Source of the DNA: Nanobdellota archaeon
GTDB lineage: Archaea > Aenigmatarchaeota > Aenigmatarchaeia > Aenigmatarchaeales > Aenigmatarchaeaceae
Direction of reading: 5' to 3'
DNA length: 64,000 bases
Assembly (NCBI GenBank): GCA_018901655.1
Contig: JAHIEG010000004.1
Location: 4,267 to 68,266, forward strand
The notes beneath the pieces were generated by a model, which was given only the letters and a program-made list of their open reading frames with translations, searched no databases and was not told the DNA's origin. This document shows, one piece after another, positions 33,615 to 63,040 of the stretch. A program made the position numbers and the translations under genes. Numbering within the stretch: the stretch's first letter is position 1; every line of letters starts with the position of its first letter.

Positions 33615-34592
33615 ATGGATGCTGACATAATAATAAAAAAAATAATAGAAAATACTGGAAAGTGTTTTGAAGAAGTTAATAGAACAATTCTAAATAAACA
33701 ACAAGAATTATCAAATTTAGTTTCTAAAGATGGTGCTGCATATATCGTTGCAAAAGAAATGGGATTGGATCTCTTTGAAAAAACTCAGAGAAGATTAGAA
33801 ATTAAAAATGTTGTTTCGGGAATTAAAAACCTCAATCTAAATGCAAGAATATTTCGAATTTTCCCACCTAAAGAATTTGAATATAAAGGAAAGAAATGTA
33901 AGGTTGCTAATGTTATACTTTCTGATGAAAGTGGAACAATAAGGATGTCTTTATGGGATACTCAATTAGATTTACTAGAAAAAAATAAACTAAAGGTTGG
34001 TCAGGCAGTTGAAATTTTTGGTGCATATACTAGAGACAATAGCGGTATTCCAGAAATTAGGCTTAGTAGACGTGGTGGAATAAATATTCTAGAAGATTCT
34101 GATATTCCGTTTGGAACAAAAGAAGAAATGGTTAGAACGGACATTTGTAATATACAAGAAGGTAAAAAATATGAAGTTCGTGCTGCTTTAGTTCAAATAT
34201 TTAATACTGGGCTTATATATGAAATGTGTCCAACCTGTAAAAAACGTGTTAAAAAGGAAGGAAGTGAATTTGTCTGTGAAACAGATGGGAAGGTTAAACC
34301 AGAATATCTAATTGTATTAAACGGTGTAATCGATGATGGTACTGGAAATGTTAGAACTGTATTGTTTAGAGATGATGCGGTTAAAGTTCTTGGAGTAGAT
34401 TTAGAAAAAATAATTGAAATTGGGCCTAGCCTGTTAAGTGAAGTAAAAACACTTGGTAAAGAATTTATATTTGAAGGATCTCTTAAAAAAAATAAAATGT
34501 TCAATAAAAGTGAATTCGTAATAAGTGGAATTAAAGACGTAAATGTAAAAGAAGAAGCTAATACGATAATAAACAGTCTTAGTAAAAAATAA
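33615..34592 (+). CDS. rpa: replication protein A (RPA/SSB) with OB folds and a Zn ribbon
   Basis: OB-fold blocks and a CPTCKKRV…CETDGK zinc ribbon. Lies next to radA. Confidence 0.75.
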   Translation: MDADIIIKKIIENTGKCFEEVNRTILNKQQELSNLVSKDGAAYIVAKEMGLDLFEKTQRRLEIKNVVSGIKNLNLNARIFRIFPPKEFEYKGKKCKVANVILSDESGTIRMSLWDTQLDLLEKNKLKVGQAVEIFGAYTRDNSGIPEIRLSRRGGINILEDSDIPFGTKEEMVRTDICNIQEGKKYEVRAALVQIFNTGLIYEMCPTCKKRVKKEGSEFVCETDGKVKPEYLIVLNGVIDDGTGNVRTVLFRDDAVKVLGVDLEKIIEIGPSLLSEVKTLGKEFIFEGSLKKNKMFNKSEFVISGIKDVNVKEEANTIINSLSKK

Positions 34593-34644
34593 TATTGTTA
34601 ACTTGGTTTAACTATTAAAATCACATAAAAATGAGGTGAAAAAA

Positions 34645-35742
34645 ATGGGGAGAAAAAAAAGAGAAGAAATTATAGAAACGGATGAAACAAACGAAGAAGT
34701 ATCAGAAGAACCGTTTGAAGAGTCAGATGAACCTGTTGAAATAGAAGAAGCTATAATAAACGAATCTATTCTTCTAAAAAGTTCAGGTACAAAAATTAAA
34801 GACATTAGTGAAATTCCAGGTGTTGGCGGCGCAATTGCAAAAAAAATAAAAGACGCTGGATTTGTTGATATGATGTCATTGGCAGCAGCATCGCCTGCTG
34901 AGCTAGCAAATGCAGCTACTGTTGGAGAAGCAACTGCAATAAAAATAATTGCAGCAGCTAGAGAAACTTTAGATATTGGATATGAAACAGCAGACAAGAT
35001 TATGATAAAAAGAGCTGCAATGGAAAAAATAACAACTGGTTCTAAAAACTTAGATGATCTTCTAGGTGGTGGAATTGAAACAATGGGAATAACAGAAGCA
35101 TATGGTCAATTTGCATCTGGTAAATCTCAATTAGCATTTCAACTCGCAGTCAATGTACAACTACCAAAGGAAAAAGGTGGATTAGAAGCTAAGTGTTTAT
35201 TTATCGACACTGAAGGAACATTTAGACCAGAAAGAATATCACAAATGGCAATAGGACTTGGATTAGATCCAGATAAAGTTTTGAAAAACATTGTCGTTGC
35301 AAGAGCTTACAACTCTAGTCATCAAATAATTCTAGCTGAAAAAGCAGGAGAAATTATTAGAGAAAATAATATCAAACTAATGATAGTTGATTCTATAACA
35401 GCAACATTTAGAGGAGATTTTACTGGAAGAGGAACATTAGCAGCAAGGCAACAATCATTGAATAGACACTTACACACCTTACAAAGATTAGCTGATGTAT
35501 ACAACATTGCAATCTATTATACAAATCAGGTAATGTCAAATCCAGGAATATTGTTTGGTGATCCAACAAGACCAATAGGTGGACACATTATTGGACACTT
35601 TGCAGACACAAGATTGTATTTGAGAAAGTCTAAAGATCAGATCAGAATTGCTAAATGTAAAGATTCACCAAATCTACCTGAGGCGGAAGCAGTATTTTTA
35701 GTTACACCAGAAGGTCTTACTGATCCTAAAGATAAAAAGTAG
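34645..35742 (+). CDS. radA: DNA repair and recombination protein RadA with an acidic N-terminal extension
   Basis: HhH (…IPGVGGAIAKKIKDAGF…), Walker A GQFASGKSQ, Walker B …LMIVDSITA…. SD GAGGTGA lies 5 nt upstream of ATG 34645. The track starts at GTG 34636. Confidence 0.9.
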   Translation: MGRKKREEIIETDETNEEVSEEPFEESDEPVEIEEAIINESILLKSSGTKIKDISEIPGVGGAIAKKIKDAGFVDMMSLAAASPAELANAATVGEATAIKIIAAARETLDIGYETADKIMIKRAAMEKITTGSKNLDDLLGGGIETMGITEAYGQFASGKSQLAFQLAVNVQLPKEKGGLEAKCLFIDTEGTFRPERISQMAIGLGLDPDKVLKNIVVARAYNSSHQIILAEKAGEIIRENNIKLMIVDSITATFRGDFTGRGTLAARQQSLNRHLHTLQRLADVYNIAIYYTNQVMSNPGILFGDPTRPIGGHIIGHFADTRLYLRKSKDQIRIAKCKDSPNLPEAEAVFLVTPEGLTDPKDKK

Positions 35743-35775
35743 CTAAAGCTAGTTTGAAAACTAAAAATAATTAGT

Positions 35776-36036
35776 TTAAACTATATCTTTTTCAGCAATG
35801 ATTACAAAGTCGCCAACAGATCTTACTGCTGAAAATGGTATTAGTAATCTTCCTTTATCGTCTTCAGATAATTGTAATTCTGATGCTTGTTTTGTTGGTT
35901 CTGCTAAAACAATATTCATAAGTTCTCCTGATTCTGTAATGAAAACTATATCACCGACTACTCCAAACTTTCTTCCAGATTCTTCTGATACAATAACTTT
36001 ACCAATCATCTGTTTTGCTCTTGCTTTTGTCTCCAT
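35776..36036 (-). CDS. PRC-barrel domain protein
   Basis: …GKVIVSEESGRKFGVVGDIVF…, a typical PRC-barrel. Confidence 0.6.
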   Translation of the reverse strand: METKARAKQMIGKVIVSEESGRKFGVVGDIVFITESGELMNIVLAEPTKQASELQLSEDDKGRLLIPFSAVRSVGDFVIIAEKDIV

Positions 36037-36088
36037 AAGTTCACCTCTTAATAATAATTTAATAACAGCTTTACTATATAAATTTATG

Positions 36089-36649
36089 TTATTTGTTTAA
36101 CTTCTTTACCATTTTTATGATTTTAACTTCAAGCTGCTTTTTAGTACCATTATTATCAATTTTGTATTTAGCTTGTCTAATTAGTCTTTCAAGTCCTCTA
36201 TGTTTTTCCGATATATCCCTATTTTTAATATATTCTTTAGTCTCGTCTTTACCAAATCTTCCTCTTTCTAATTCTCTTTTTAACCTTGTTTTAAAATTAC
36301 ACTTAATTGTAATAACAGAAACCTTATGATCTAGTAAATCTTCTAAAACTTGTAATTGGTCTATGTCTCTAAAACCCTCAACAATTATTAATTTCTTTCT
36401 AGATCTAACGATTTTTTCAAATACTTTTTGAACTAAAACAGCTTCTCGTCCGTACTGATGAAACCAATGAGCAACTGCTGCATCTGCTGTAGGAGAATAT
36501 TTTAATCCTTGTCTTTCAATCTCCTCTCTAATTATATCCCCAGAATGGATAGTTTTTGCTCCAAGTTTTTTCTTAACAAAATCAACTGCATAAGTTTTAC
36601 CAGATCCTGGAAGACCTACAATTAAAATAATTCTTTTGCCTTTTGTCAT
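36089..36649 (-). CDS. P-loop nucleotide/nucleoside kinase family protein (adenylate-kinase-like fold)
   Basis: …IILIVGLPGSGKTY… Walker A, about 186 aa. Confidence 0.55.
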   Translation of the reverse strand: MTKGKRIILIVGLPGSGKTYAVDFVKKKLGAKTIHSGDIIREEIERQGLKYSPTADAAVAHWFHQYGREAVLVQKVFEKIVRSRKKLIIVEGFRDIDQLQVLEDLLDHKVSVITIKCNFKTRLKRELERGRFGKDETKEYIKNRDISEKHRGLERLIRQAKYKIDNNGTKKQLEVKIIKMVKKLNK

Positions 36650-36684: not shown

Positions 36685-37032
36685 TTATTCTGGAAAGCCT
36701 TCATAAAATTTTCTTGAACTATCTGGTTTCATTTTCTGTGCTACCATTAAAAACCCATATGTCTCTGCTGCTGGTGATGCAGCATCAATTCTTCTTCCAA
36801 CCATAATTTCTATTGCTGACCACATATCATTTATTCCATCAAAATATAATGCAGCTTCTACCCTTTGCTCTCTTGTTAAATTATCCAAATCAACTTCAAC
36901 AGATGTATCTTTTGAATATGTTTCGAGTAACATTGATACATATCCATCAATTGTTTTTGGATCATTTATTTCTTCAACCATATTATTATTTACTACCCAA
37001 AGGTATTTAAATAGATAACTATGCTTCAACAA
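36685..37032 (-). CDS. hypothetical protein
   Basis: ORF only. Confidence 0.35.
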   Translation of the reverse strand: MLKHSYLFKYLWVVNNNMVEEINDPKTIDGYVSMLLETYSKDTSVEVDLDNLTREQRVEAALYFDGINDMWSAIEIMVGRRIDAASPAAETYGFLMVAQKMKPDSSRKFYEGFPE

Positions 37033-38107
37033 ACATTGTTTTTACTTTAGGTGTTAAAGAATACATAAATGTCTTTCCTCTTGATTCTCTTTGAACAAAC
37101 CCGTCTAACATTAGTCGATGAAGAATATTATTAGTTGATCTAATTGCGTGTCCTTTTGTCTTATAGGACTTAAAATCAAGCTTTTCTATAATCAGAGACG
37201 GTGTAACCCAATTTTCATTAGATAAAAGTTCAACTATTTTTCTCTGTTTGTATGGAAGACTCTTAATTTGATCCATTGATGGTGGTTTAGGTGAAAAATA
37301 AACAACTGGTTCATCAACTCTCACATTTTGCGGTGTGAATTCCCTTAATCCATCAACATCTGATGCATCTATTACTTTTTTATCAACTCGACTAATTAAT
37401 TTATCACAGTGTTTTAAAACTTCTCTTGGAAATCCACCTGTTCGATGATAAATCTTATCAATTGCATCTTCTGTAAACGGAATCGTGCCTGAACCTCCTA
37501 CAGATTCAATTCTCTTTCTTATCAAATCTCGAGTATCGTCTCTTGTAAGTGATGTTAAGGTTATTCTATTAGTTATTCTTTGATCTAAGGTTTCAAGTTT
37601 CTCTTTTAACATTTCTTCAAGAACTGGTAATCCAGCCATTGTTAGACTAACATTATCTATTTGATCAACTGTTACTCTTAACCATTCTAAAACATCTTTA
37701 TTAGTTTCGTGTGCTTCATCAAGTAAAAATACCAAATGGTTGCCTTTTAGCTTATTATTTATATATTTTGGTAAATTATGTAGATTTGGTTTCTTTTTTA
37801 ATATTTTTTCCCAAAACGTTAATGGAAAAGCATCTAATGCTATGTCTACAAACATATCTGGATTTTGAGGCGGCTTACTTACATAGAACACATTTTCTCT
37901 AATATTATATTCAAGCCACTTTAACATAGAAGTCTTTCCAGAACCTGTATTTCCAGTCAAAAGAGCTACTTTATGCTTATTTTCTATATGATTCATCATA
38001 GCTTTTACTTGTTCCTCATACCCAGTAAATAACTTAGGATCTATTGTAAGTACAAAAGGATTCGATTTCCAATTCCATTTAGTTAAATTGTCTTGCATCT
38101 TAATCAA
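37019..38107 (-). CDS. AAA+ ATPase with C-terminal winged helix, Orc1/Cdc6-like (possible second initiator paralogue or Arch_ATPase family)
   Basis: Walker A GNTGSGKTS, Walker B LVFLLDEAHE, C-terminal wHTH …RKIVELLSNENWVTPSLIIEKL…. Its start abuts the repeat array. Confidence 0.55.
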   Translation of the reverse strand: MIKMQDNLTKWNWKSNPFVLTIDPKLFTGYEEQVKAMMNHIENKHKVALLTGNTGSGKTSMLKWLEYNIRENVFYVSKPPQNPDMFVDIALDAFPLTFWEKILKKKPNLHNLPKYINNKLKGNHLVFLLDEAHETNKDVLEWLRVTVDQIDNVSLTMAGLPVLEEMLKEKLETLDQRITNRITLTSLTRDDTRDLIRKRIESVGGSGTIPFTEDAIDKIYHRTGGFPREVLKHCDKLISRVDKKVIDASDVDGLREFTPQNVRVDEPVVYFSPKPPSMDQIKSLPYKQRKIVELLSNENWVTPSLIIEKLDFKSYKTKGHAIRSTNNILHRLMLDGFVQRESRGKTFMYSLTPKVKTMFVEA

Positions 38108-38142
38108 TTATATATTTATTTTCAGATATTTAAAGCTTTTTA

Positions 38143-38420
38143 GTTCACGTGAAGTTCATGTGAACATTTCGTGAAGGTTTCACGTGAAGTTGCTTTGTTT
38201 TTGTTAAAAAATCATATAATTTTGATTAAAAATGAAATGTGTGTTTTCGGCGTGAAGTTCATGTGAAGTTCACGTTACCTTCACGTGAAGGTCTAAATGT
38301 TCACGTGAACATTTATCAGAATGTTGAAATTACAATGCCCAATAAGTCGGTTTTGAGAGATATTCACGTGAAGTTCACGCGTGAAGATGTGAAGGTTTCG
38401 TGAAGAACAAAGTGAAGGTT
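38143..38420. repeat. array of about 12 copies of the palindromic motif (T)TCACGTGAAG(G/T)T in direct and inverted orientation (ORB-like), with an A/T-rich stretch; candidate replication origin or initiator binding platform
   Basis: Seen directly: GTTCACGTGAAGTTCATGTGAAC, TTTCACGTGAAG, a perfect 20-nt palindrome AAATGTTCACGTGAACATTT (38297..38316), ATTCACGTGAAGTTCACGCGTGAAG, and others. A/T-rich 38193..38245. Confidence 0.6.
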
Positions 38421-38491
38421 TAATGAATAAATGCAATTAAAATACCTTAAAAATAGTCTCTCATGATACTATAGATTAACCATATGTTTAT

Positions 38492-39594: not shown

Positions 39595-39792
39595 TCACTT
39601 TATTGTTACTGCTATCGGTTCTGATACTTCTTTCTTATCTTCTGGTTCAGCATGAACTCCATATCTTCTTCTATCTTTTAATTCTTGAAGTTTGGCAGCA
39701 TTCCAACCACTTACATTTTGATAGTATCCTGTTATTCTAGACCATACTTGCACATTTTTACTTTTACACTTTGAACATTCACATTCTATCAT
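39595..39792 (-). CDS. nrdD: class III RNR glycyl-radical domain encoded as a stand-alone 65-aa ORF (NrdD C-terminal fragment: half Zn-ribbon + RxxGY glycyl radical motif)
   Basis: MIECECSKC…WSRITGYYQNVSGWNAAKLQELKDRRRY matches the NrdD C-terminus (…RVxGY…WN.GK..E…R). Own SD GAGGTGA 5 nt upstream. All three frames are closed between it and nrdD-large. Confidence 0.7.
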   Translation of the reverse strand: MIECECSKCKSKNVQVWSRITGYYQNVSGWNAAKLQELKDRRRYGVHAEPEDKKEVSEPIAVTIK

Positions 39793-39806
39793 ATTTTCAC
39801 CTCATT

Positions 39807-42800
39807 TTAAGCCCCACCTACAAAACCACAATCATCACACACTGCCAAGTCTTTTGTAAACGCAAAGTATTGTATTGCTGTTTTTGTTGCAATGTTTTTA
39901 GTTAATTGGGTTATTGCATCTGGGTCTGGATTAGCATCAGCAAGCCATATATGACTCATTGCTCCTCCATCTGTTAAAGGATGAAAGGATCCTTCTATTT
40001 GTAATCTTTTGAATAGTGGCACATTTGCATCTGGCCTTACGTGAAATGAATTGGTATAATATATTGATTTTGTATCTGAATTTCCTTGATAAATTACTTT
40101 ATTTGGATATCGTCTTTTATCTATCATTGCTAAACGACCACCCGTTGATTCAGCTGGAGTTCTTGCCAAAGCAAAATTTAATCCTGTTTCTTCTCTAAGT
40201 GCTGCTATCTTAGTTTTTAAATATTTCATTATTTTTAATCCAAACATCCAAGCTGACTGACTTTCATGTAATTCAGAACCTGTATAATATTTTACCATTT
40301 CATTAAATCCAATATGACCAATTGTATAACTCTGTTTTAAAGGTTCTAAGTATCTATCACCTTTTTCATTTACTATTTGACTCATGAAAGGTAACATTCC
40401 ATTTTGTAAATTCTTTTCTATTAAATCTTTTCTAAGAATCATAATTCTTTTAATCAATTCTAATCTCTCATCAATTATTTCATATATTCTGCTTTCTTCT
40501 TTATCAGACTCATATGCAATTTGTGGTAAGTTTAAAGTTACTACTTGTAATGATCCTCCTCTGACAGTTCCGTTTAACATGTCATCTGCATCTGATGATT
40601 TATCTAATGGCATAAGATAGGCACAACAGTTCGATGAAAATATTCCATCTGATGTTAAAAAATTATGATACTTTTCAACATTAATTAAATCATATACGTA
40701 TCGGCTTTTTACTTCTTCTATTTTCTTTACTTCAAATAAGTGTAAATCGCTTCTTATGAATTTTGAATATAATTCATCGTTCATTTCGAGTCTTTTTTCT
40801 GTTACTCTTTTACCAATTTGACACCTGTTCCAATGTCCTGTTTTTAAATTTTCTCTTTTAATATCAAATGGATTAACTGGGACCCTTTCATAAGAATCAA
40901 ATGATTTACCTAATATTGTAGGAACGTTATCAGAAAATGGCACTGATTCCAGAAATGAGCTCTTTCTTAAATTACTTGTTAATCTTAACGAATGAGAATT
41001 TTCTCCATGATATTTATCAAATGGAACCCCTATTCTCAAACCAAGTACAAAAATATCATCAATTAAGTCTCTATTACACAAATGTAAATCTATCTTATCT
41101 GAATTTGAACCGTCTCCTCTAAACATTCCAAGCATGAAATCCTTTATAATATACCAAGGAGAAGTCATGAGTATTTTTGGTACTCTTTTGGTTTTAGCAT
41201 CATAATTTGTTCCAATATTATCAAATAGTTCAACAAGTTCTTTGCTATAAACATAAACTGTGTTTGTATTATTCTTTTCTGAAATATCAAACTTAGCTTC
41301 TAAACCAAATTTTTCCTTAAGTATTTTAGCTGTATCGTCAATGTATTCTTTTTCTTTAATATTGAATGAGAATGATATCTTGTTATATCTTGTTTTCTTA
41401 TTTGCTATGTGCATATATCCTTCACTTGCAAAATATCCAAGAAGTCTTGCAAATTTAGCATCTATTTCTATTTTTTTATTATTAAAATCAACAAATCGAT
41501 CAAATTCAAACTCAAGTGGTAAATTCTTAGCACCAATTAAATAGTCTCCTTTCTTGACATCTTCCATTCTTATTTCACTTATCTTATTATTCCTCACAAC
41601 TGGTATTTTGTGTTTTTCTGTTCCTGAAAAAGTCCTATTTCCATCAAGAATTAATTTGAAAATCTTTTCTTTTGTTTCGTGTTTCATTACTTTTTCTATT
41701 TTTGTTTTCTTTATTTCAAGCGTATTTGTATCGAATGATATTGCATAATCATTACATTTTGATAGCTTAACTTTTCCTTCAATGCCGCTTCCTTTCTCGA
41801 CTATAGATTTTTTCATTATAGATTCAACATATTCTCCTATTTCGATATTTATGAGTCTATCATCTCTTAAAATCAATATCTTCTCTTCACCTGGTATTGA
41901 TTGATAACATGAAAATTCAGGCATATATGGCTGTTTAATTATGTAATATGGTGTTCCAAACTTTGCTGCAAGACTAGAAACTTTATACGTCTCTTCATTG
42001 TATCTTCCAGCTGCTAAATCTTTTGGATCCATTTGTACTTCAAACTTAGGAAAGTTAAATGGTTTTCCTTGCCAATCTCCTTTATCAAACACGTCTAAAA
42101 ATGCATTAAATAGTTTTCTTGTCTCATCTTCATAGTCTCCATAAGTTCCTGTTGCTCCACTTTTTCTTAATCCAATTATTGGAATGTCTTTTAACATATT
42201 TGGAACATGCATATCTAAATCGATTGAAGAAAATACAACCTGTCCTCCTCGCGCAACATACATTTGACTATTATGCAAAGCTATACCACTGATTGAAATA
42301 AAGTTCTGTGTTTCTTCTATCTCTAAATCATAAACATAAATTTCTTTATCTAATTTTTTAATACTTGTTATTTTTTCCAAGAATAGGTCATGGTTTAGAG
42401 GATTACAAGGAATGTTAGAAACATTCGTCATTGTTCCATTAAATGGTGCTAACATATAATCTGGCGTCTGTGGTACTCCTTTATTTTTTATTATATTTTC
42501 CAGTTTCAATGCCTTTTCATTCACAAATCCTATCTGATCCAAAAATTTCTTTGCAGAACTAATATCACATATATATAATAAATTAGAATCTTCATTTGCT
42601 TTTGTCTTTACTCCTTTGATAATAATCTCTTCTCCAGCTTTTCTAAATATCTTAGATTTAAATACAAGACCAAATCTTAAAAATGCAAATCTTAACTGTT
42701 CTAAAAGCTTTTTACTCGATGTTGTCATACCTACCATTCTTGAATCTGAAACATAACCGTCACTATTTACATAAGACTTTAAAAATTGTGACAATTTTTC

Positions 42801-47351: not shown

Positions 47352-49034
47352 TTATCTTAACTTAACAGCAACTCCTTTCTTAAAATCTTTAATTTCTTTT
47401 TTGTTTAACAACGCCATTCCTGTTATAATTGGTTTACTATCTGAAACTATCAATACTTCTTCTCCTGGATAAATATCATCTGTTCGTTCAACAAACTTAG
47501 TAAATAATGATCTTCCACTTTTTACATGCTCAAGTATCTCTGATGGTACTTCAACTGTTTTCATCTTAATATATTTTGATCCTTCTAAGGTTGGTATAAA
47601 GAATCCATCATGTGGTCTTATTGTTCCAAGTAATTTTTTGTTTTTCCAAACTCTTCTAATCCGTCCTGTCTTTCTTGAAACTTCTGTGCTAAAACTTGTT
47701 TTAAACTTTGAACTAAATTGATATTCAATTGTTTTATTTACAATATCACTATTACTTGCTTTACCAATTGGTTCAACCTGATCTGGAACTATTGATTGTC
47801 CAAATGGATAAACTCCTTTTAATTCGATTGGTACTTTTCCAAACGGTTTCTTAACAAAATATTTTTTAGATTTAACTCCTTTAACCATTTTCTTAGCTCT
47901 TAGAACTTCTGGTCTATATTTCGATTCTTCGCCACACCATCGCAATGCGGATTTCTTCGAGATTGGTTCGTTCCCCAACAAATATTTTCTATATTTTTTG
48001 AGAACAAATTGTAACGCCTCAAGCAATGCCGGATGTGCTCTTGCTCTTTGTTGTACTAACTCCCACAAACTATTATCTCTGATTGCTTGGCGTATGGATC
48101 TTAATTCCGCGAATGTAACATAAAGATTGTGTCTTGCCAATTCTTTTACTTTTGCTGAATTTTCTAATTCTATTAATTCTTTAACCGTGTATTTTGTGCA
48201 TATCGGACATGAACATGGCAACTCTATTAATTCTTCTAATCTATGCGTTCCGTAATTTGTCATATATCTATTATCATATGCGTATAATGCGTAGGCAGCT
48301 GAATCAAAAATATCAGAACCTATGGCAACAGCCAAACTCATAAAACTAGGCAGACCCAAGCCAAATGCGTGGAGCGGCTTATTTGAAGGTATGTTCATTT
48401 TCGCTGTTATAATCTGCTGGCATACTGTTTTAAAATCATATCTTATCATCTTCGGCACAATCGAACCAATAGCATATGCATCAAAATCTAATTTGCCAAC
48501 GGATTTTGCACATTTTTTAACAAGATCAAGGTGTTCTCCGCCTTGTATCGGAGCCATCCATGATATTTTTGAATTCTCTGTTAATAATTTGCATTCTTTC
48601 GCTCTTTTAATTGTTTCGAGCACTGTTTTTTTCGCGTCATCATATTTTAAATCTCCAGATGTAACATCTAAAAAGGTTCCAATGTCTGGTTTTATTTTCT
48701 CTTGAAATTCAATTATCTCTTTATTTGTTAAATTAATAGACGACCCGAACATTGTTTGATATGCCCCACTGTCTGTCATTATCATACCGTCAAAATTCAA
48801 GAAATCATGAAGTCCTCGTTTCGAAATATCTTCCATTAACCTTGATCTTTTAATCAGATACGCATTTGTAATTATTAGTTTCGCCCCAAATTCTTTTTTT
48901 AATTCGGCTGGCGTTATTATCATTTTCCCAGGATTTATTACTACAGCCAGTTCTGGGAGCACTATGTTCCGATCACCCAAAGTTAGTTTAGATATTCGAC
49001 CTGAACAATCACGAGAGAGAAGTTCTAACATCAT
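47352..49034 (-). CDS. tgtA: archaeosine tRNA-guanine transglycosylase (ArcTGT) with C-terminal PUA domain
   Basis: TGT catalytic barrel, Zn site …CSCPICTKY…, C-terminal PUA-like segment. 560 aa. Confidence 0.9.
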   Translation of the reverse strand: MMLELLSRDCSGRISKLTLGDRNIVLPELAVVINPGKMIITPAELKKEFGAKLIITNAYLIKRSRLMEDISKRGLHDFLNFDGMIMTDSGAYQTMFGSSINLTNKEIIEFQEKIKPDIGTFLDVTSGDLKYDDAKKTVLETIKRAKECKLLTENSKISWMAPIQGGEHLDLVKKCAKSVGKLDFDAYAIGSIVPKMIRYDFKTVCQQIITAKMNIPSNKPLHAFGLGLPSFMSLAVAIGSDIFDSAAYALYAYDNRYMTNYGTHRLEELIELPCSCPICTKYTVKELIELENSAKVKELARHNLYVTFAELRSIRQAIRDNSLWELVQQRARAHPALLEALQFVLKKYRKYLLGNEPISKKSALRWCGEESKYRPEVLRAKKMVKGVKSKKYFVKKPFGKVPIELKGVYPFGQSIVPDQVEPIGKASNSDIVNKTIEYQFSSKFKTSFSTEVSRKTGRIRRVWKNKKLLGTIRPHDGFFIPTLEGSKYIKMKTVEVPSEILEHVKSGRSLFTKFVERTDDIYPGEEVLIVSDSKPIITGMALLNKKEIKDFKKGVAVKLR

Positions 49035-50220
49035 TTAACCTCCATACAGATTTTTTATTACTTCCAATCCTTTCTATTGTGCCCATTCTTTGTAGATTAT
49101 TAAGATGTTTCCGCATAGTTATTTGTGACCTATCAAATCTTATCGAAAGATCTTTACTTTTAAGAACATCTTTGTTATCAAACTCCTTTAATATTATCTG
49201 TTGAATTTCTCCTTTTTTATATTGTTTATTAAACTTACGAGAAACTAGTGCCACTATCCTTTCTTTTTTGAGCATATGAATGAAACTTACCTTTTCTTTA
49301 AATGTCTTGATTTGATATTGTCCCGTAATTCCGAAACCTAGACATATCCTATCTCTTTCTTTTCTAGATCTCATTTTTCTAACCGCATCGGGACTTACAC
49401 CCAAACCTATCAACATTTTTCTTGTATGTTCCAGAAACTCATTCAGATTTTCTGCTATTTGTGTCTTTTTATCAAAACATATTCTTATGTTATTATGTTT
49501 GTAACATACTGTTCCTTCATCATCAAATAACGCCTGTAAGAATGCTGACTTAATTTCATTTGATCCGTTCAGAATCCAATCTGGTATAAAATATTGTTTC
49601 TCTGTCTTCTTACCATCTGGTGCTCCGCATAAAATTAATAATTTACCGATAACATTCGAAAATGTTATCATAGTTTTTACTTTATTTGTAACGGTTATAA
49701 CTTCTGTTCCAGTGTTTAGATTTTTTCCGAAGACTTTGACGACATCTTTCCTAACACTTTCAACCAACTCCTTTCTTGTATTTGAATATTGAAACTGATT
49801 TGCTCTTTTACTGATATGTCCATCGCCCATCGCATGAGCAACAAGTCTAGCCAAAGCAGCTGATGATACTACTGGCAATTTAACAGGAATCAGTTGATGA
49901 TGCTTACCGCGCATATATTTTATATTTTTCTCAATATCAGAATATGGTATTTCTGATAGCTTTGATATGTTTCTAATCATATGCGAACTAGCTAAAGCCT
50001 CTTCTCTTATTCCTTTTCTGTTTCGAAAGCCATTTTTTATTTCTATCACATGAGAATCGTGCATATTAAATATCTTGGCCAGTTTTTTCCACTCTCCTCC
50101 AGCGTTATATCTTGCTCTGTCAAATAGTTTTTTTCTGAATTCGTCGTTGATGCCGATAAAAATACTGTTTGGTAAATTATCTAATGATATTAAATTCGTG
50201 CGATCCGTCATATAAATCAC
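49009..50220 (-). CDS. free-standing HTH + double-LAGLIDADG + C-terminal winged-helix protein (intact paralogue of 2749..3887)
   Basis: N-terminal …GEWKKLAKIFNMHDSHVIEIKNGFR… HTH, …LARLVAHAMGDGHIS… (motif 1), …LQALFDDEGTV… (motif 2), C-terminal …HLNNLQRMGTIERIGSNKKSVWRL…. Confidence 0.65.
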   Translation of the reverse strand: MIYMTDRTNLISLDNLPNSIFIGINDEFRKKLFDRARYNAGGEWKKLAKIFNMHDSHVIEIKNGFRNRKGIREEALASSHMIRNISKLSEIPYSDIEKNIKYMRGKHHQLIPVKLPVVSSAALARLVAHAMGDGHISKRANQFQYSNTRKELVESVRKDVVKVFGKNLNTGTEVITVTNKVKTMITFSNVIGKLLILCGAPDGKKTEKQYFIPDWILNGSNEIKSAFLQALFDDEGTVCYKHNNIRICFDKKTQIAENLNEFLEHTRKMLIGLGVSPDAVRKMRSRKERDRICLGFGITGQYQIKTFKEKVSFIHMLKKERIVALVSRKFNKQYKKGEIQQIILKEFDNKDVLKSKDLSIRFDRSQITMRKHLNNLQRMGTIERIGSNKKSVWRLNDVRTSLS

Positions 50221-59740: not shown

Positions 59741-60457
59741 ATGGAAGATGATATTGCTAAAGAATCATTGTCTAAGAAGATAGCTGGTGAAATTGTTCTA
59801 AGTGAAGAACCTGGAAAAACAATACAAAAGTGGAGAAATATATTCAAAATACCTCAAAGGACTTTAGCTAATGAACTTGGTATGATGCCTTCTGTTATAT
59901 CTGATTATGAAAATGGTAGACGACAAAGCCCAGGAATTAAGATTATCAGAAAAATTGTAACTTCTATGATTAATTTAGATGAAAAGGCTGGTGGTAAAGT
60001 GATTAGAGAGTTTTCAAACATGCCTTCAAATAACAACGTTAATGACGCTCTAATAGATAGTAAGGAATTTAGTAAGGGTATTATTATTAAAGATTTTTGT
60101 AAGAAAATCAAGGCAGAGTTGGTAGTAAGACGGGATATGGAAAACGACAAGATTTATGGTTATAGTATAATCGACGCTCTAAAAGCTATAGTAGAATTAT
60201 CGCCAAGTGAGATGGTTAGACTTCATGGATTAACTAGCAAGAAAGCTCTAATATTTTCAGGTGCTAATACTGGACGAAGTTCTATGATCGCTCTAAAAAT
60301 AGGTAATGTTAGACCTGGTCTAGTCGTTCTTCAGACAAAAGAAAAAGATATCGACGTTCTTGCAAGACGGATCGCTCATATTGAAGGTATTCCGGTAGCT
60401 GTTCTTGATATTAAAACTTCTGAACTCAAATCAGCTATTAAGAAGGTATTTAAATGA
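59741..60457 (+). CDS. XRE-type HTH transcriptional regulator with C-terminal domain (archaeal COG1395-like)
   Basis: …QKWRNIFKIPQRTLANELGMMPSVISDYENGRR… HTH. Confidence 0.55.
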   Translation: MEDDIAKESLSKKIAGEIVLSEEPGKTIQKWRNIFKIPQRTLANELGMMPSVISDYENGRRQSPGIKIIRKIVTSMINLDEKAGGKVIREFSNMPSNNNVNDALIDSKEFSKGIIIKDFCKKIKAELVVRRDMENDKIYGYSIIDALKAIVELSPSEMVRLHGLTSKKALIFSGANTGRSSMIALKIGNVRPGLVVLQTKEKDIDVLARRIAHIEGIPVAVLDIKTSELKSAIKKVFK

Positions 60458-60639
60458 GTCCTTTTGTAAAAGGTTCAAAAGAAGGTCAAAAATTTATTAA
60501 TGATGTTATTAAAATTACAGAAAAATTATCTAAAAGGGACGAATATTCTCTAGAAAAAGGTACGTGTTGTTGTCCACAAAAAAATTATTATTTTAATATC
60601 TGATTAAGACCCACACCCCATCGTTTCCTAACGAACTGC

Positions 60640-60900
60640 TCTATATAATAATATATATAAACATTATTATATTATAATAACAGTGTTATATTTTTCATTT
60701 AAAATCGTTGTTATTTTTCTCTAGTTTTAGAAATGTTCCAAAGGAAACAGTGGTGGTAGCGACGATATTACCCCGTTATACCCCTATATTGCATATAAAA
60801 ATGAAGGAACGTGAAGTTCCATAGGCAGCAAAGGGGTAACGTGAAGATAGGTATAAATATGTTCACGGGACAAATCTACATAAGAAGTAGAGGTTATAAC
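60640..60900. promoter_or_regulatory. A/T-rich stretch + three CGTGAAG/CGTGAAC elements + GGAAACAGTGG ORB-like element immediately upstream of orc1/cdc6: candidate origin of replication
   Basis: Seen: A/T-rich 60640..60720; GAACGTGAAGTTCCA (60806..60820), TAACGTGAAGATAGG (60838..60852), ATGTTCACGGGAC (60859..60871, inverted); GTTCCAAAGGAAACAGTGGTGG (60734..60755). Confidence 0.5.
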
Positions 60901-62088
60901 ATGACACTAGAGAATATATTTGACAAATACATGAACAATAATAATATATTCACCAATAGGTCTGTGCTGTCAATTTCATTCACCCCAGAATCTATTCCCC
61001 ACCGGGAGGCACAGATGAACGAACTTGGTCGGATCCTTGCCCCGTCACTTAGGGGCGAGAAACCAAGTAATGTTTTTGTTTATGGTCGAACTGGAACAGG
61101 TAAATCTGTTGTTACTAGACTTGTAGGAGCAGAACTCGAAAAAAGATCAAAAGAGAATGGACATTCTGTAAAAGTAGTTTATTTGAATTGTAAGATGAAA
61201 ACAGCTGATACGGAATATAGATTACTGGCTAGCTTATCTAATGAATTTGGAGTTCATGTTCCGTTTACTGGACTTCCAACAGACCAAGTTTATAAAATTT
61301 TCTTTAATTGTATTGATTCAGTTAAACAAAATGTGATTATAATTATCGATGAAATAGATGCTCTTATTCAGAAAAATGGAGATGAAATTCTTTATAATTT
61401 AACAAGAATTAATCAGGATCTAAAAAATTCCACCCTTTCGATTATAGGAATTACTAATGATTTAGGATTTATTAATAATTTAGATCCAAGAATTAAGTCA
61501 TCTCTTGGTGAAGAAGAGCTTATTTTTCCACCATATGACGCTGTCCAACTTCAAGATATTCTTAGAAATAGAGCAGAACAAGCATTTGTTGTAAAATCAT
61601 TAGATGTGGGGGTTATTGAAAAATGTGCTGCTTTAGCAGCTCAAGAACACGGAGATGCACGAAGGGCTTTAGACCTGTTAAGAGTATCTGGAGAACTAGC
61701 TGAACGAACAGGTTCAATAGTAGTAAACATATCTCATGTTGATCAGGCAGAGGATAAAATAGATATTGATCGAACAGTTGAATTAATGAGAGCACAACCA
61801 AAACAATCTCAGGCTGTTTTGTGGTCAATTGTTAAAAACGATAAAAAAAACAATATAGAAACTGGAGATATAATTGATGTTTATCATGAGGTTTGTAGAG
61901 AGAACTGTCTTAAACCTTTAACACAAAGAAGGGTTTCTGATTTAATATCAGAATTAGACATGTTTCAGGTAATTAATACTAAAGTTATTTCAAAAGGGAG
62001 ATATGGAAGAACAAGAGTTGTTTCTCTAAACGTCTCTGATAATATTCATACAAAATTAACAAATATGTTACAACAGAATTTCTTGTGA
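60901..62088 (+). CDS. cdc6: Orc1/Cdc6 replication initiator
   Basis: Walker A GRTGTGKS, Walker B IIIIDEID, C-terminal wHTH. Start placed at ATG 60901 (MTLENIFDKYM…). The track's GTG start at 60811 lies inside the repeat region. Confidence 0.9.
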   Translation: MTLENIFDKYMNNNNIFTNRSVLSISFTPESIPHREAQMNELGRILAPSLRGEKPSNVFVYGRTGTGKSVVTRLVGAELEKRSKENGHSVKVVYLNCKMKTADTEYRLLASLSNEFGVHVPFTGLPTDQVYKIFFNCIDSVKQNVIIIIDEIDALIQKNGDEILYNLTRINQDLKNSTLSIIGITNDLGFINNLDPRIKSSLGEEELIFPPYDAVQLQDILRNRAEQAFVVKSLDVGVIEKCAALAAQEHGDARRALDLLRVSGELAERTGSIVVNISHVDQAEDKIDIDRTVELMRAQPKQSQAVLWSIVKNDKKNNIETGDIIDVYHEVCRENCLKPLTQRRVSDLISELDMFQVINTKVISKGRYGRTRVVSLNVSDNIHTKLTNMLQQNFL

Positions 62089-62092
62089 TTTT

Positions 62093-63040
62093 ATGGAAAT
62101 AGTAAAAGATTTAATGAAAATGGGAATATTGGTGGATCAGGAAGCTATTGATGCACTGAATAATCTTAAAGATACTGAACTTACTGTGGTTGTTGAAAAA
62201 ACAAAAATAGAAAGACCACTTGTATTAACTCCTGAGTTGGTTTCAATGTATTTGAAATCTACTAAATATGAAATTATTAAACAATTTGAGAGCAAGGAAG
62301 CTTATACAATTCAGGACATAGTTGAACAGTTAAATAAAAGATATGATTTTATTCAAGGCCTGTTAATGAGAAAAGTAGAACTGTCAAACATAGTTTCAAT
62401 AAATAAGTGTGAAAGTGGAAAACTTACTGTAATAGGACTGGTTAAGAAAAAAGAAGATAGTGGAACAAATGATATTCTTGAATTAGAAGACAAGACCGGA
62501 ACACTAAAAGCAGTTATTTCAAAAGATCTTGGTAAAGATATTAAAATTGATGATGTAATCGCGGTTTATGGAAACTATAATAATAAACTTTTGTTTGGAG
62601 AAACATTAAGATATCCAGATGTTCCACTTAGAAAAGCAGGGTGTTCTGAGAAAGAAACAAGGGTTAGTTTTATAATAAACTATGATTTTCAAAAACAAAT
62701 GGATATTGACTCAGAATATATCATAATTAGTAATTGTGATGGTTTAGACGGGGTTAAACAAAGATACCCAAGATCAAAAGTGTTTGTTATTGGAACAGAT
62801 ATTAGGTCTCCTTGTTTAATCAATATTGATGGCGTTGTGTTTATGATAATTTTAGATATTGATCCACTAAAAGCGCTAAAGAGAAGATATGTTTCGATTG
62901 ATAAAACAGATTTTTTGGTAAATACAGTACCAGATATAATTTTAACAAATAGGGAAATTGAAACGAACTATAAATCAATAAGTGTTATTAGTAAATCTGT
63001 TGAAATAAATTTAAAAACTAGAGAAATTAATATAATTTAA
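62093..63040 (+). CDS. DNA polymerase II small subunit (DP1)-like protein: N-terminal helical domain + OB fold, but short (315 aa) with no recognisable phosphoesterase motifs
   Basis: N-terminus MEIVKDLMKMGILVDQEAIDAL… and OB block …GKLTVIGLVKKKEDSGTNDILELEDKTGTLKAVIS… resemble DP1. No GDxxD/GNHD/GNHE motifs. Confidence 0.45.
   Translation: MEIVKDLMKMGILVDQEAIDALNNLKDTELTVVVEKTKIERPLVLTPELVSMYLKSTKYEIIKQFESKEAYTIQDIVEQLNKRYDFIQGLLMRKVELSNIVSINKCESGKLTVIGLVKKKEDSGTNDILELEDKTGTLKAVISKDLGKDIKIDDVIAVYGNYNNKLLFGETLRYPDVPLRKAGCSEKETRVSFIINYDFQKQMDIDSEYIIISNCDGLDGVKQRYPRSKVFVIGTDIRSPCLINIDGVVFMIILDIDPLKALKRRYVSIDKTDFLVNTVPDIILTNREIETNYKSISVISKSVEINLKTREINII

Follow-up and report, generated by a model that had tools for sequence, protein, structure and literature searches.

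Does the dense array of short palindromic repeats that lies beside an AAA+ gene in a DPANN archaeon mark the site where replication of the chromosome begins, or does it belong to the control of an origin situated elsewhere? The array is present in a stretch of 64,000 nucleotides from contig JAHIEG010000004.1 of a Nanobdellota archaeon (Aenigmatarchaeota), which is referred to as the window, and it directly adjoins a gene encoding an AAA+ protein with a C-terminal winged helix (AAA+/wH protein; Table 1). The first-pass annotation had described it as a putative replication origin. We found that the array is real and far beyond chance, that it accompanies the AAA+ gene across the phylum, and that sites of the same type recur in a canonical orc1-associated oriC candidate of the same window. 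It looks like an origin-linked control element and not like the main origin. The link of this locus to replication was upheld by its synteny with radA and rpa, the Cdc6/ORC-like fold of the adjacent protein and the recurrence of its sites in oriC, while the origin assignment itself was not supported, as the array has neither origin recognition boxes (ORBs) nor a clean skew inflection. How DPANN archaea control the start of replication has hardly been studied, and the locus adds to this subject a conserved pair of AAA+/wH gene and array, a clear canonical oriC for the phylum, and a motif that is interleaved there with Orc1 site and TATA box.

A phased repeat array and the adjacent AAA+/winged-helix gene

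The half-sites GTGAA/TTCAC were counted 20 times between 38144 and 38416, against a window background of 1.8 per kb on both strands, at which about 0.6 would be expected per 330 bp. Five perfect TTCACGTGAA palindromes (at 38144, 38179, 38280, 38300 and 38363) are among them, and the earlier description of an array of about 12 copies in two orientations was confirmed in substance. The perfect palindrome that it reported is also present, as TAAATGTTCACGTGAACATTTA, and measures 22 nt instead of 20 nt. The sequence CACGTGAAG occurred five times in the 64 kb, every time within the array (expected 0.14; none of 100 shuffles reached five). The extended motif CGTGAAG was found 12 times in the window (expected 2.2), with nine copies in the array, two in the orc1 promoter and one elsewhere; therefore, the motif is not scattered over the window, a possibility that the first-pass annotation had raised against its own proposal. 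The A/T-rich spacer was also found to be real, with 77% AT, though against a window mean of 69% this reaches only the 97th percentile of 60-bp windows. The region had been said to have no coding potential, and the array was upheld as a non-coding element of protein-binding type that is tied to the adjacent gene, with the correction that a 54-aa open reading frame (ORF; 38239–38403) is situated inside it. No known RNA was found in the array region with Rfam. The palindrome TATAACAnTGTTATA was considered as a component of the array and was rejected, as it is found at oriC and at other intergenic sites.

The conservation of the array was examined in species-representative genomes, where the scan gave 80 loci with homologues of the AAA+/wH protein at 39–70% identity, 78 of them analysable, and half-sites were counted in 500-bp windows over each whole locus of ~13 kb. 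The densest window was located at most 1.3 kb upstream of the AAA+ homologue in 76 of the 78 relatives, down to ~40% identity, and these windows contained 7–38 half-sites against a background of 1–5 per kb in genomes of 25–53% GC and at protein identities of ~40–81%. The 8-mers derived from TTCACGTGAA were present in up to 62 of 73 upstream regions. A TATA-type box, TTTAAATA, was seen in 38 of the 73 against 3 controls, and an element (T)CTCACAAA in 36 of them against 8 controls; the TCTCAAAA element of the window is related to the latter, which may be a degenerate half-site or a separate site. Close relatives have two palindromes 24–31 bp before the ATG, downstream of the TTTAAATA box, and cluster A of the window adjoins the TATA box. 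In two loci (L001 and L002) an extra ORF separates the array from the AAA+ gene, about 700 bp upstream, and the array is displaced to -1040..-719. L002 carries the label of an Aminicenantia bacterium but is probably mis-binned, since upstream of the gene it is identical to the Aenigmatarchaeota contig L001.

The half-sites of the relatives are phased at ~10.5–11 bp. Distances between half-sites of the same orientation peaked at 11, 21–22, 30–33 and 41–43 bp, and those between opposite orientations at 5/16/26–27/36–37 bp and 6/17/28 bp; this periodicity places all the sites on one face of the helix. The arrays of 69 of 70 relatives are broken up by site-free gaps of at least 35 bp, whose AT content has its median at the 98th percentile relative to the whole loci, a richness that is not specific because intergenic DNA is AT-rich anyway. 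In many arrays the runs of half-sites converge on a central palindrome, and their orientation across the gaps is not consistently inverted. The side of the array that carries the AAA+ gene is syntenic in most loci (kinase-like, PRC-barrel, radA and rpa genes) and its far flank is variable; therefore, the array travels with the AAA+ gene.

The AAA+/wH protein carries Walker A (GNTGSGKT) and Walker B (LLDEAHE) motifs that are invariant in 24 homologues, and its AlphaFold2 (AF2) model contains a C-terminal winged helix, which agrees with the domain content assigned to it earlier. Arginines R174, R178 and R225 of the AAA+ module are likewise invariant across the 24 homologues and may act as arginine finger or sensor 2. 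The gene is transcribed away from the array, but it is not placed divergently as had been stated, since nrdG on the far side lies on the same strand. The description of the protein as Orc1/Cdc6-like also failed at the family level, since it gave no match to the Orc1/Cdc6 models Cdc6_C (PF09079), Cdc6_lid (PF22703) and TIGR02928, whereas the true Orc1 encoded 22.8 kb away passes the Pfam models. It passed the AAA_22 model PF13401 (46.9 bits, cut-off 27) and matched the ExeA-like TIGR03015 (XrtA-associated ATPase) with an E-value of 1.9e-25 and 89.8 bits, which is below the cut-off of 324.5; it is related to this group without being an equivalog member. The other best matches were MuB (PDB 8xvb, E 2e-5) and a phage transposition-protein PHROG. 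When the family was compared with the Orc1 of the window by hhalign, the probability was 6.7% (E 0.005). An exhaustive profile search gave 102 representatives with E up to 1e-30, many of them full-length with AAA+ and winged helix, and the next shell consisted of TPR/Zn-ribbon AAA_22 proteins and peptidoglycan-binding ExeA proteins.

The AF2 model of the full protein (predicted local distance difference test, pLDDT, 86.8) had archaeal Orc/Cdc6 structures as top Foldseek matches (E 1e-11 to 1e-9). Three helices between beta2 and beta3 are compatible with the initiator-specific insert and not diagnostic of it, and the winged helix is joined by a linker of ~30 residues, partly of low confidence. 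A single-sequence model of the C-terminal domain alone (pLDDT 52) was not used. The model thus assigns the protein to the initiator/MuB/TnsC (Cdc6/ORC) structural group with a predicted Orc-like domain order, and the profile comparisons place it outside the Orc1/Cdc6 family. In distant homologues the winged helix resembles MarR/TrmB/BlaI. Its recognition helix, (H/N)A(I/V)RSxNNIL, and wing are nearly invariant, and so is the motif. A mobile-element origin of the gene was rejected, as homologues were absent from a phage collection, only seven weak AAA-domain matches were found among plasmids, all bacterial, and the PHROG matches were MuB-like only.

Array-type sites in the canonical oriC and strand composition around the array

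A canonical orc1/cdc6 gene, its start chosen by comparison with 395-aa homologues, is preceded by three ORB-type elements around an AT-rich stretch (Table 1). The elements retain most of the ORB core TTCC...GAA (PMC1904270), with ORB-R1 as the sole exact copy. The AT-rich stretch includes the 60-bp window that ranks second in AT content over the 64 kb (99.98th percentile), and the same layout is repeated upstream of orc1 in Aenigmatarchaeota contigs. Judged by these sequence features, 60611–60841 is a textbook archaeal oriC. The array motif had been likened to ORB and mini-ORB elements, a comparison that does not hold, for it lacks the TTCC...GAA core and the real ORBs are those upstream of orc1. 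The sequence TTCCANNGGAAA has no exact match in the array, and its sole exact match in the window is at 60736. An ORB-like match was found in none of the arrays upstream of the AAA+ gene in the 80 loci and four times elsewhere in these loci, using a strict regular expression that also missed the ORBs of the window. In the 80 loci, no gene for Orc1 was seen in the 6 kb to either side.

The orc1 promoter/oriC region holds the only cluster of extended CGTGAAG outside the array in the window, and other pairs of half-sites look like chance. One copy (60810) is immediately left of ORB-R2, another (60840) lies between ORB-R2 and the TATA box, and a TTCAC (60862) just past it, so that the orc1 TATA box (60850–60861) is bracketed by array-type sites. 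The order ORB, (A/T)(A/C)(C/T)GTGAAG and TATA is conserved in the close orc1 loci (L081–L090, L093, L155 and L161–L170) and is often preceded by array-type 11-bp units, for example GTGAAGTTCATGTGAAGTTCC. The distant DPANN orc1 loci keep the ORBs, and most of them are without a half-site in the 150 bp upstream of orc1. The AAA+ gene and orc1 are divergent in the window and in four other contigs, with the array and oriC facing each other, and they are 22.8 kb apart in the window. The distance between the two genes is 14.3 kb in a 740,627-bp contig, equal in a 34-kb contig that is probably from the same species, and 13.2, 14.1 and 11.4 kb in three NCBI contigs; two of the four other contigs appear to be near-identical genomes. 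Several further contigs of 32–93 kb appear to carry both the AAA+ gene and orc1.

Strand asymmetry was analysed around both loci. The raw cumulative GC skew of the window peaks at 35–36 kb, follows the gene strand and has no extremum at the array. The skew was decomposed by a regression that separates a coding-strand term from a segment term, and was also pooled over 42 AAA+ and 26 orc1 loci. The residual GC skew at third codon positions (GC3) was -0.119 ± 0.029 to the left of the array and -0.020 ± 0.026 to its right, and the corresponding AT skew (AT3) went from +0.011 to -0.073. GC3 was negative on both sides without a sign flip, and the clean inflection that an origin at the array was expected to give was not seen. 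Pooled over the 42 relatives, no skew switch was found at the array (GC3 -0.030 ± 0.017, AT3 +0.011 ± 0.012) in an analysis of low power, where the orc1 control itself showed a switch in AT3 only. Divergence of genes from the array was also absent over these 42 relatives, in which genes point toward the array at least as often as away from it.

The oriC AT-rich stretch contains a palindrome (T)ATAACAnTGTTAT(A) at 60677–60689, which occurs in most DPANN orc1 loci (L086–L127), at the distal edge of the array in one clade (~12 AAA+ loci, e.g., L010 at 5416 and L026 at 5474) and at some intergenic sites. In relatives (L161–L170) orc1 is flanked by a gene for a 238-aa HTH_3 protein upstream and one for an OB-fold protein of ~300 aa downstream. 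The flanking genes of the window are at 59741–60457 and 62093–63040, and in the 741-kb contig PolB comes next. The orc1 gene and its flanking genes form a conserved replication island.

Table 1. Positions in the 64,000-nucleotide window of the array, the oriC candidate and the associated genes.
Feature	Coordinates	Strand	Remarks
Whole array	38142..38430		~14–15 degenerate 11-bp units (TTCACGTGAAn), 20 half-sites
Cluster A	38144..38189		6 half-sites, 2 perfect palindromes; promoter-proximal, a few bp from the transcription factor B recognition element (BRE)/TATA of the AAA+ gene
Site-free AT-rich gap	38190..38251		62 bp, 77% AT
Cluster B	38252..38310		7 half-sites; overlaps the perfect 22-nt palindrome 38294–38315
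Second site-free gap	38311..38362		52 bp, 69% AT; holds the TCTCAAAA element
Cluster C	38363..38417		7 half-sites, chiefly direct GTGAAG repeats spaced 11–12 bp
AAA+ (ExeA/AAA_22-type, Cdc6/MuB-like fold) and C-terminal winged-helix protein	37019..38098	-	359 aa; presumed array binder
Putative TATA box of AAA+ gene (CTTTAAATAT)	38126..38135	-	28–37 bp before the ATG; predicted from sequence
Canonical orc1/cdc6	60901..62088	+	395 aa; Cdc6_C PF09079 1.7e-25, Cdc6_lid PF22703 6e-24, AAA
Canonical oriC candidate	60611..60841		Three ORBs round an AT-rich stretch, directly upstream of orc1
ORB-L	60611–60637	inverted	Aligned to relatives
AT-rich stretch of oriC	60638–60733		96 bp, 84% AT
ORB-R1	60734–60760		Sole exact match to the ORB core
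ORB-R2	60815–60841		Aligned to relatives
Array-type sites in oriC/orc1 promoter	60810..60866		CGTGAAG 60810, 60840; TTCAC 60862
Kinase-like P-loop protein	36089–36649	-	In the conserved downstream neighbourhood of the AAA+ gene (33615..36649)
PRC-barrel protein	35776–36036	-	86 aa; conserved, two genes downstream of the AAA+ gene
RadA	34636–35742	+	Conserved neighbourhood, convergent
RPA-like protein	33615–34592	+	Conserved neighbourhood

Possible roles of the array: control platform, origin, centromere or operator

The reading that we favour, with a confidence that stays somewhat short of even, is that the array serves as the cognate cis-acting oligomerisation and autoregulatory platform of the adjacent AAA+/wH protein, coupled to the control of oriC and orc1, and is not a canonical origin. 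It builds on what was observed directly, namely the array and its phasing, the linkage of array and gene throughout the phylum, where the sites stand in relation to TATA boxes and ORBs, and the conserved linkage with oriC. From these we infer the identity of the binder, its ATP-dependent assembly and the regulatory outcome as follows. Dimers of the winged helix would nucleate on the perfect TTCACGTGAA palindromes, and the ATP-bound AAA+ modules would then spread cooperatively over the half-sites phased at ~10.5–11 bp along one helix face, giving a large nucleoprotein complex. This complex would abut or cover the BRE/TATA or the transcription start of its own gene, with autoregulation as the result. 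The protein may also occupy the few array-type sites on both sides of the orc1-proximal ORB and of the orc1 TATA box, 11–23 kb away, which could couple it to orc1 expression or to origin firing. More speculatively, the origin-proximal array would be duplicated early and might thereby act as a datA-like sink.

Several observations speak against this reading. The binder is assigned from linkage and co-conservation only, and another reader of GTGAA could be involved, such as the HTH_3 protein encoded next to oriC. The protein and the motif showed no co-variation, both being invariant; even the subgroup with Asn for His where the recognition helix begins has CGTGAA and GTGAAG as its top upstream 6-mers. 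The 20–38 half-sites far exceed the needs of autoregulation. The proximal cluster of the window sits upstream of the TATA box instead of covering the start site, and therefore repression is only one of the outcomes to be considered. At orc1, most of the sites are single half-sites, and the decomposed skew moves by ~0.09 in the origin-like direction near 36–38 kb in the window, which is a modest change.

The remaining explanations give the array a role in initiation, in segregation or in local transcription. It is possible, though doubtful, that the protein is a non-Orc initiator or licensing factor of ExeA/MuB-type AAA+-winged-helix architecture, which acts on a parS-like 11-bp iteron array and either fires a second origin or gates oriC beside the Orc1 sites. 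In the narrower form of this idea, which we consider unlikely, the array would be a second true origin (oriC2), where the non-Orc AAA+/wH initiator oligomerises, melts the AT-rich gap and recruits MCM. The locus has the cassette architecture of archaeal origins and iteron replicons (array, AT-rich gaps, initiator-like gene and promoter palindromes), the fold of the protein is nearest to Cdc6/ORC, the half-sites of many arrays converge on a central palindrome, replication genes are in the neighbourhood, and the small GC3/AT3 shift at 36–38 kb has an origin-like direction. However, a complete canonical oriC lies 22.8 kb away in the window and 11–14 kb away in four other contigs with conserved linkage, and we know of no characterised archaeon with two origins as close as 11–23 kb. 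Furthermore, no array contains ORBs, the protein fails the Orc1/Cdc6 models, and it has no phage homologues and only seven weak AAA matches on bacterial plasmids. The GC3 skew does not flip sign, no switch appears in the 42 pooled loci and the genes do not diverge from the array, and its AT-rich gap stands at the 97th percentile as compared with the 99.98th of the oriC stretch.

The array could instead be an origin-proximal centromere-like or chromosome-organising site, which we regard as quite unlikely; here the AAA+/wH protein or another factor would assemble into a large complex over the repeats and serve segregation, looping of the origin domain or SMC-type loading, by analogy with parS/ParB or parC/ParR. 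Its position 11–23 kb from oriC is conserved, and the helically phased 11-bp array flanks the promoter of the adjacent gene, a promoter-flanking layout of phased repeats that is also that of parC of plasmid R1. The 10-bp core TTCACGTGAA also forms the core of bacterial parS, TGTTTCACGTGAAACA, and the array-type sites at oriC could permit bridging. The PRC-barrel gene is conserved two genes downstream, and its family has been linked to archaeal cell division. Against these points, no gene of the ParA, ParB, SegA or SegB type was found among the annotated genes of the window or beside the array, the AAA+/wH protein is unrelated to ParB, and the likeness to parS is confined to a CACGTG-centred 10-mer that may be a coincidence; to our knowledge, AAA+ centromere-binding proteins have not been described. 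We give the least credence to an oversized but ordinary operator, through which a local transcription factor would control its own operon (AAA+, kinase-like and PRC-barrel genes), with the half-sites at orc1 as incidental. It would account for sites that lie next to or over the TATA box or start site of the AAA+ gene, for the winged helix resembling MarR/TrmB/BlaI in distant homologues and for palindromes that suit dimeric transcription factors, but the ORB-GTGAAG-TATA positions are conserved in all close orc1 loci examined, and 20–38 phased sites over 300–1100 bp together with a conserved AAA+ motor are superfluous for a simple repressor. Should the protein regulate or co-initiate at oriC, as the control reading favoured here would have it, the system would be an archaeal counterpart of the DnaA/datA- or CtrA-type control of origins from a different AAA+ lineage; should it fire the array, it would represent a new class of archaeal initiator.

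Known counterparts and genomic surroundings

The Orc1/Cdc6-ORB origins of Sulfolobus, Pyrococcus and Methanothermobacter (PMC1904270) resemble this locus in having an AAA+/wH gene beside an array of presumed sites and AT-rich DNA. The Cdc6-1 of Methanothermobacter is known to bind cooperatively to multiple short repeats, and the AAA+/wH protein studied here shares with these initiators the fold nearest to Cdc6/ORC. Unlike them, it is ExeA/AAA_22-like and fails the family models, its motif TTCAC|GTGAA is palindromic, phased at 11 bp and without the TTCC core, and a true Orc1/ORB origin coexists 11–23 kb from the array. In Pyrococcus, a second ORB cluster is located inside dp1 within a few kb of oriC, conserved and with no known initiation activity (PMC1904270), and it is similarly an extra conserved cluster of initiator-type sites near oriC. 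There, however, the elements are ORBs bound by Cdc6/Orc1 itself, whereas the present array has another motif and another presumed binder. Saccharolobus Orc1-2 recognises a short motif scattered over many promoters. This non-initiator Orc1 paralogue is a global regulator of the DNA-damage response (PMC9738581), and as an initiator-type AAA+/wH protein that works as an ATP-switched, sequence-specific regulator it provides a precedent for the reading that we favour. It differs in being a bona fide Orc1 family member, and the sites here are concentrated in one giant array and oriC.

Bacterial DnaA boxes, as in the low-affinity arrays of oriC, the dnaA promoter and datA, are known for phasing at ~11 bp, for autoregulation and for an origin-linked titration locus. 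The present system is like them in its presumed AAA+ DNA-binding protein, its sites phased at ~11 bp and present at its own promoter, and its linkage to the origin, and differs in protein family and domain of life. MuB, TnsC/TniB and ExeA-like AAA_22 proteins are the closest sequence-profile matches of the AAA+/wH protein. These proteins form ATP-dependent DNA filaments without sequence specificity and have no C-terminal winged helix; in contrast to their setting, no transposase is nearby here, and the gene is chromosomal, present once per locus and in conserved synteny. Iteron plasmid origins with Rep, as well as parC/ParR and parS/ParB, combine phased direct repeats with an inverted repeat at a neighbouring promoter. 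The array is like iteron replicons in its phased direct repeats, AT-rich segment and inverted repeat over the promoter of the adjacent gene, a likeness of geometry only, and like the iteron/parC/parS systems (PMC7022226) in its 10-bp core, equal to the parS core, and in its origin-proximal position. Only this 10-bp core of the 16-bp parS palindrome is identical and the flanks differ, for example ATGTTCACGTGAACAT. The Pfam scan, which covered 45 proteins of the window, gave no ParA and no ParB (ParBc/HTH/CTPase), a Rep or ParR homologue was not found either, and unlike these systems the array is chromosomal and conserved across the phylum. In the literature searched we found nothing on the AAA+/wH family, on the motif in archaea or on an Aenigmatarchaeota origin. 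The type of system is familiar, namely a sequence-specific AAA+ protein with a phased array near an origin, and its novelty lies in the lineage of the protein, in the motif, in how large the array is and in how it interleaves with Orc1 sites.

The window is chromosomal DPANN DNA of 30% GC with relatives in Aenigmatarchaeota, and it contains housekeeping genes such as those for tRNA synthetases, FtsZ, ribosomal protein L10 and pyruvate:ferredoxin oxidoreductase (POR). On its right the array is followed by three minus-strand genes, namely nrdG, one for a thioredoxin and an intein-containing nrdD. A NrdR-type or other nrd regulation by the array was rejected, as nrdDG adjoins the array in a minority of loci only. 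A 115-aa ORF (36685–37032) gave no tblastn match in any of the relative loci. The 100-aa plus-strand ORF at 35798–36100 is a low-complexity antisense shadow of the minus-strand PRC-barrel gene. The nrdD gene is split (39595–39809); the main ORF carries two intein/LAGLIDADG insertions and ends with ...CDDCGFVGGA*, and 15 nt downstream the glycyl-radical C-terminus (RITGYY) has a 65-aa ORF to itself, with a separate Shine-Dalgarno-like GAGGTGA. Either the gene is truly split or the assembly is in error. A 403-aa ORF in the 47352–50220 region, with matches to LAGLIDADG and DeoR-type HTH, lies on the strand of the archaeosine tRNA-guanine transglycosylase gene and overlaps its start; this ORF may be an intein or a homing endonuclease tied to that gene.

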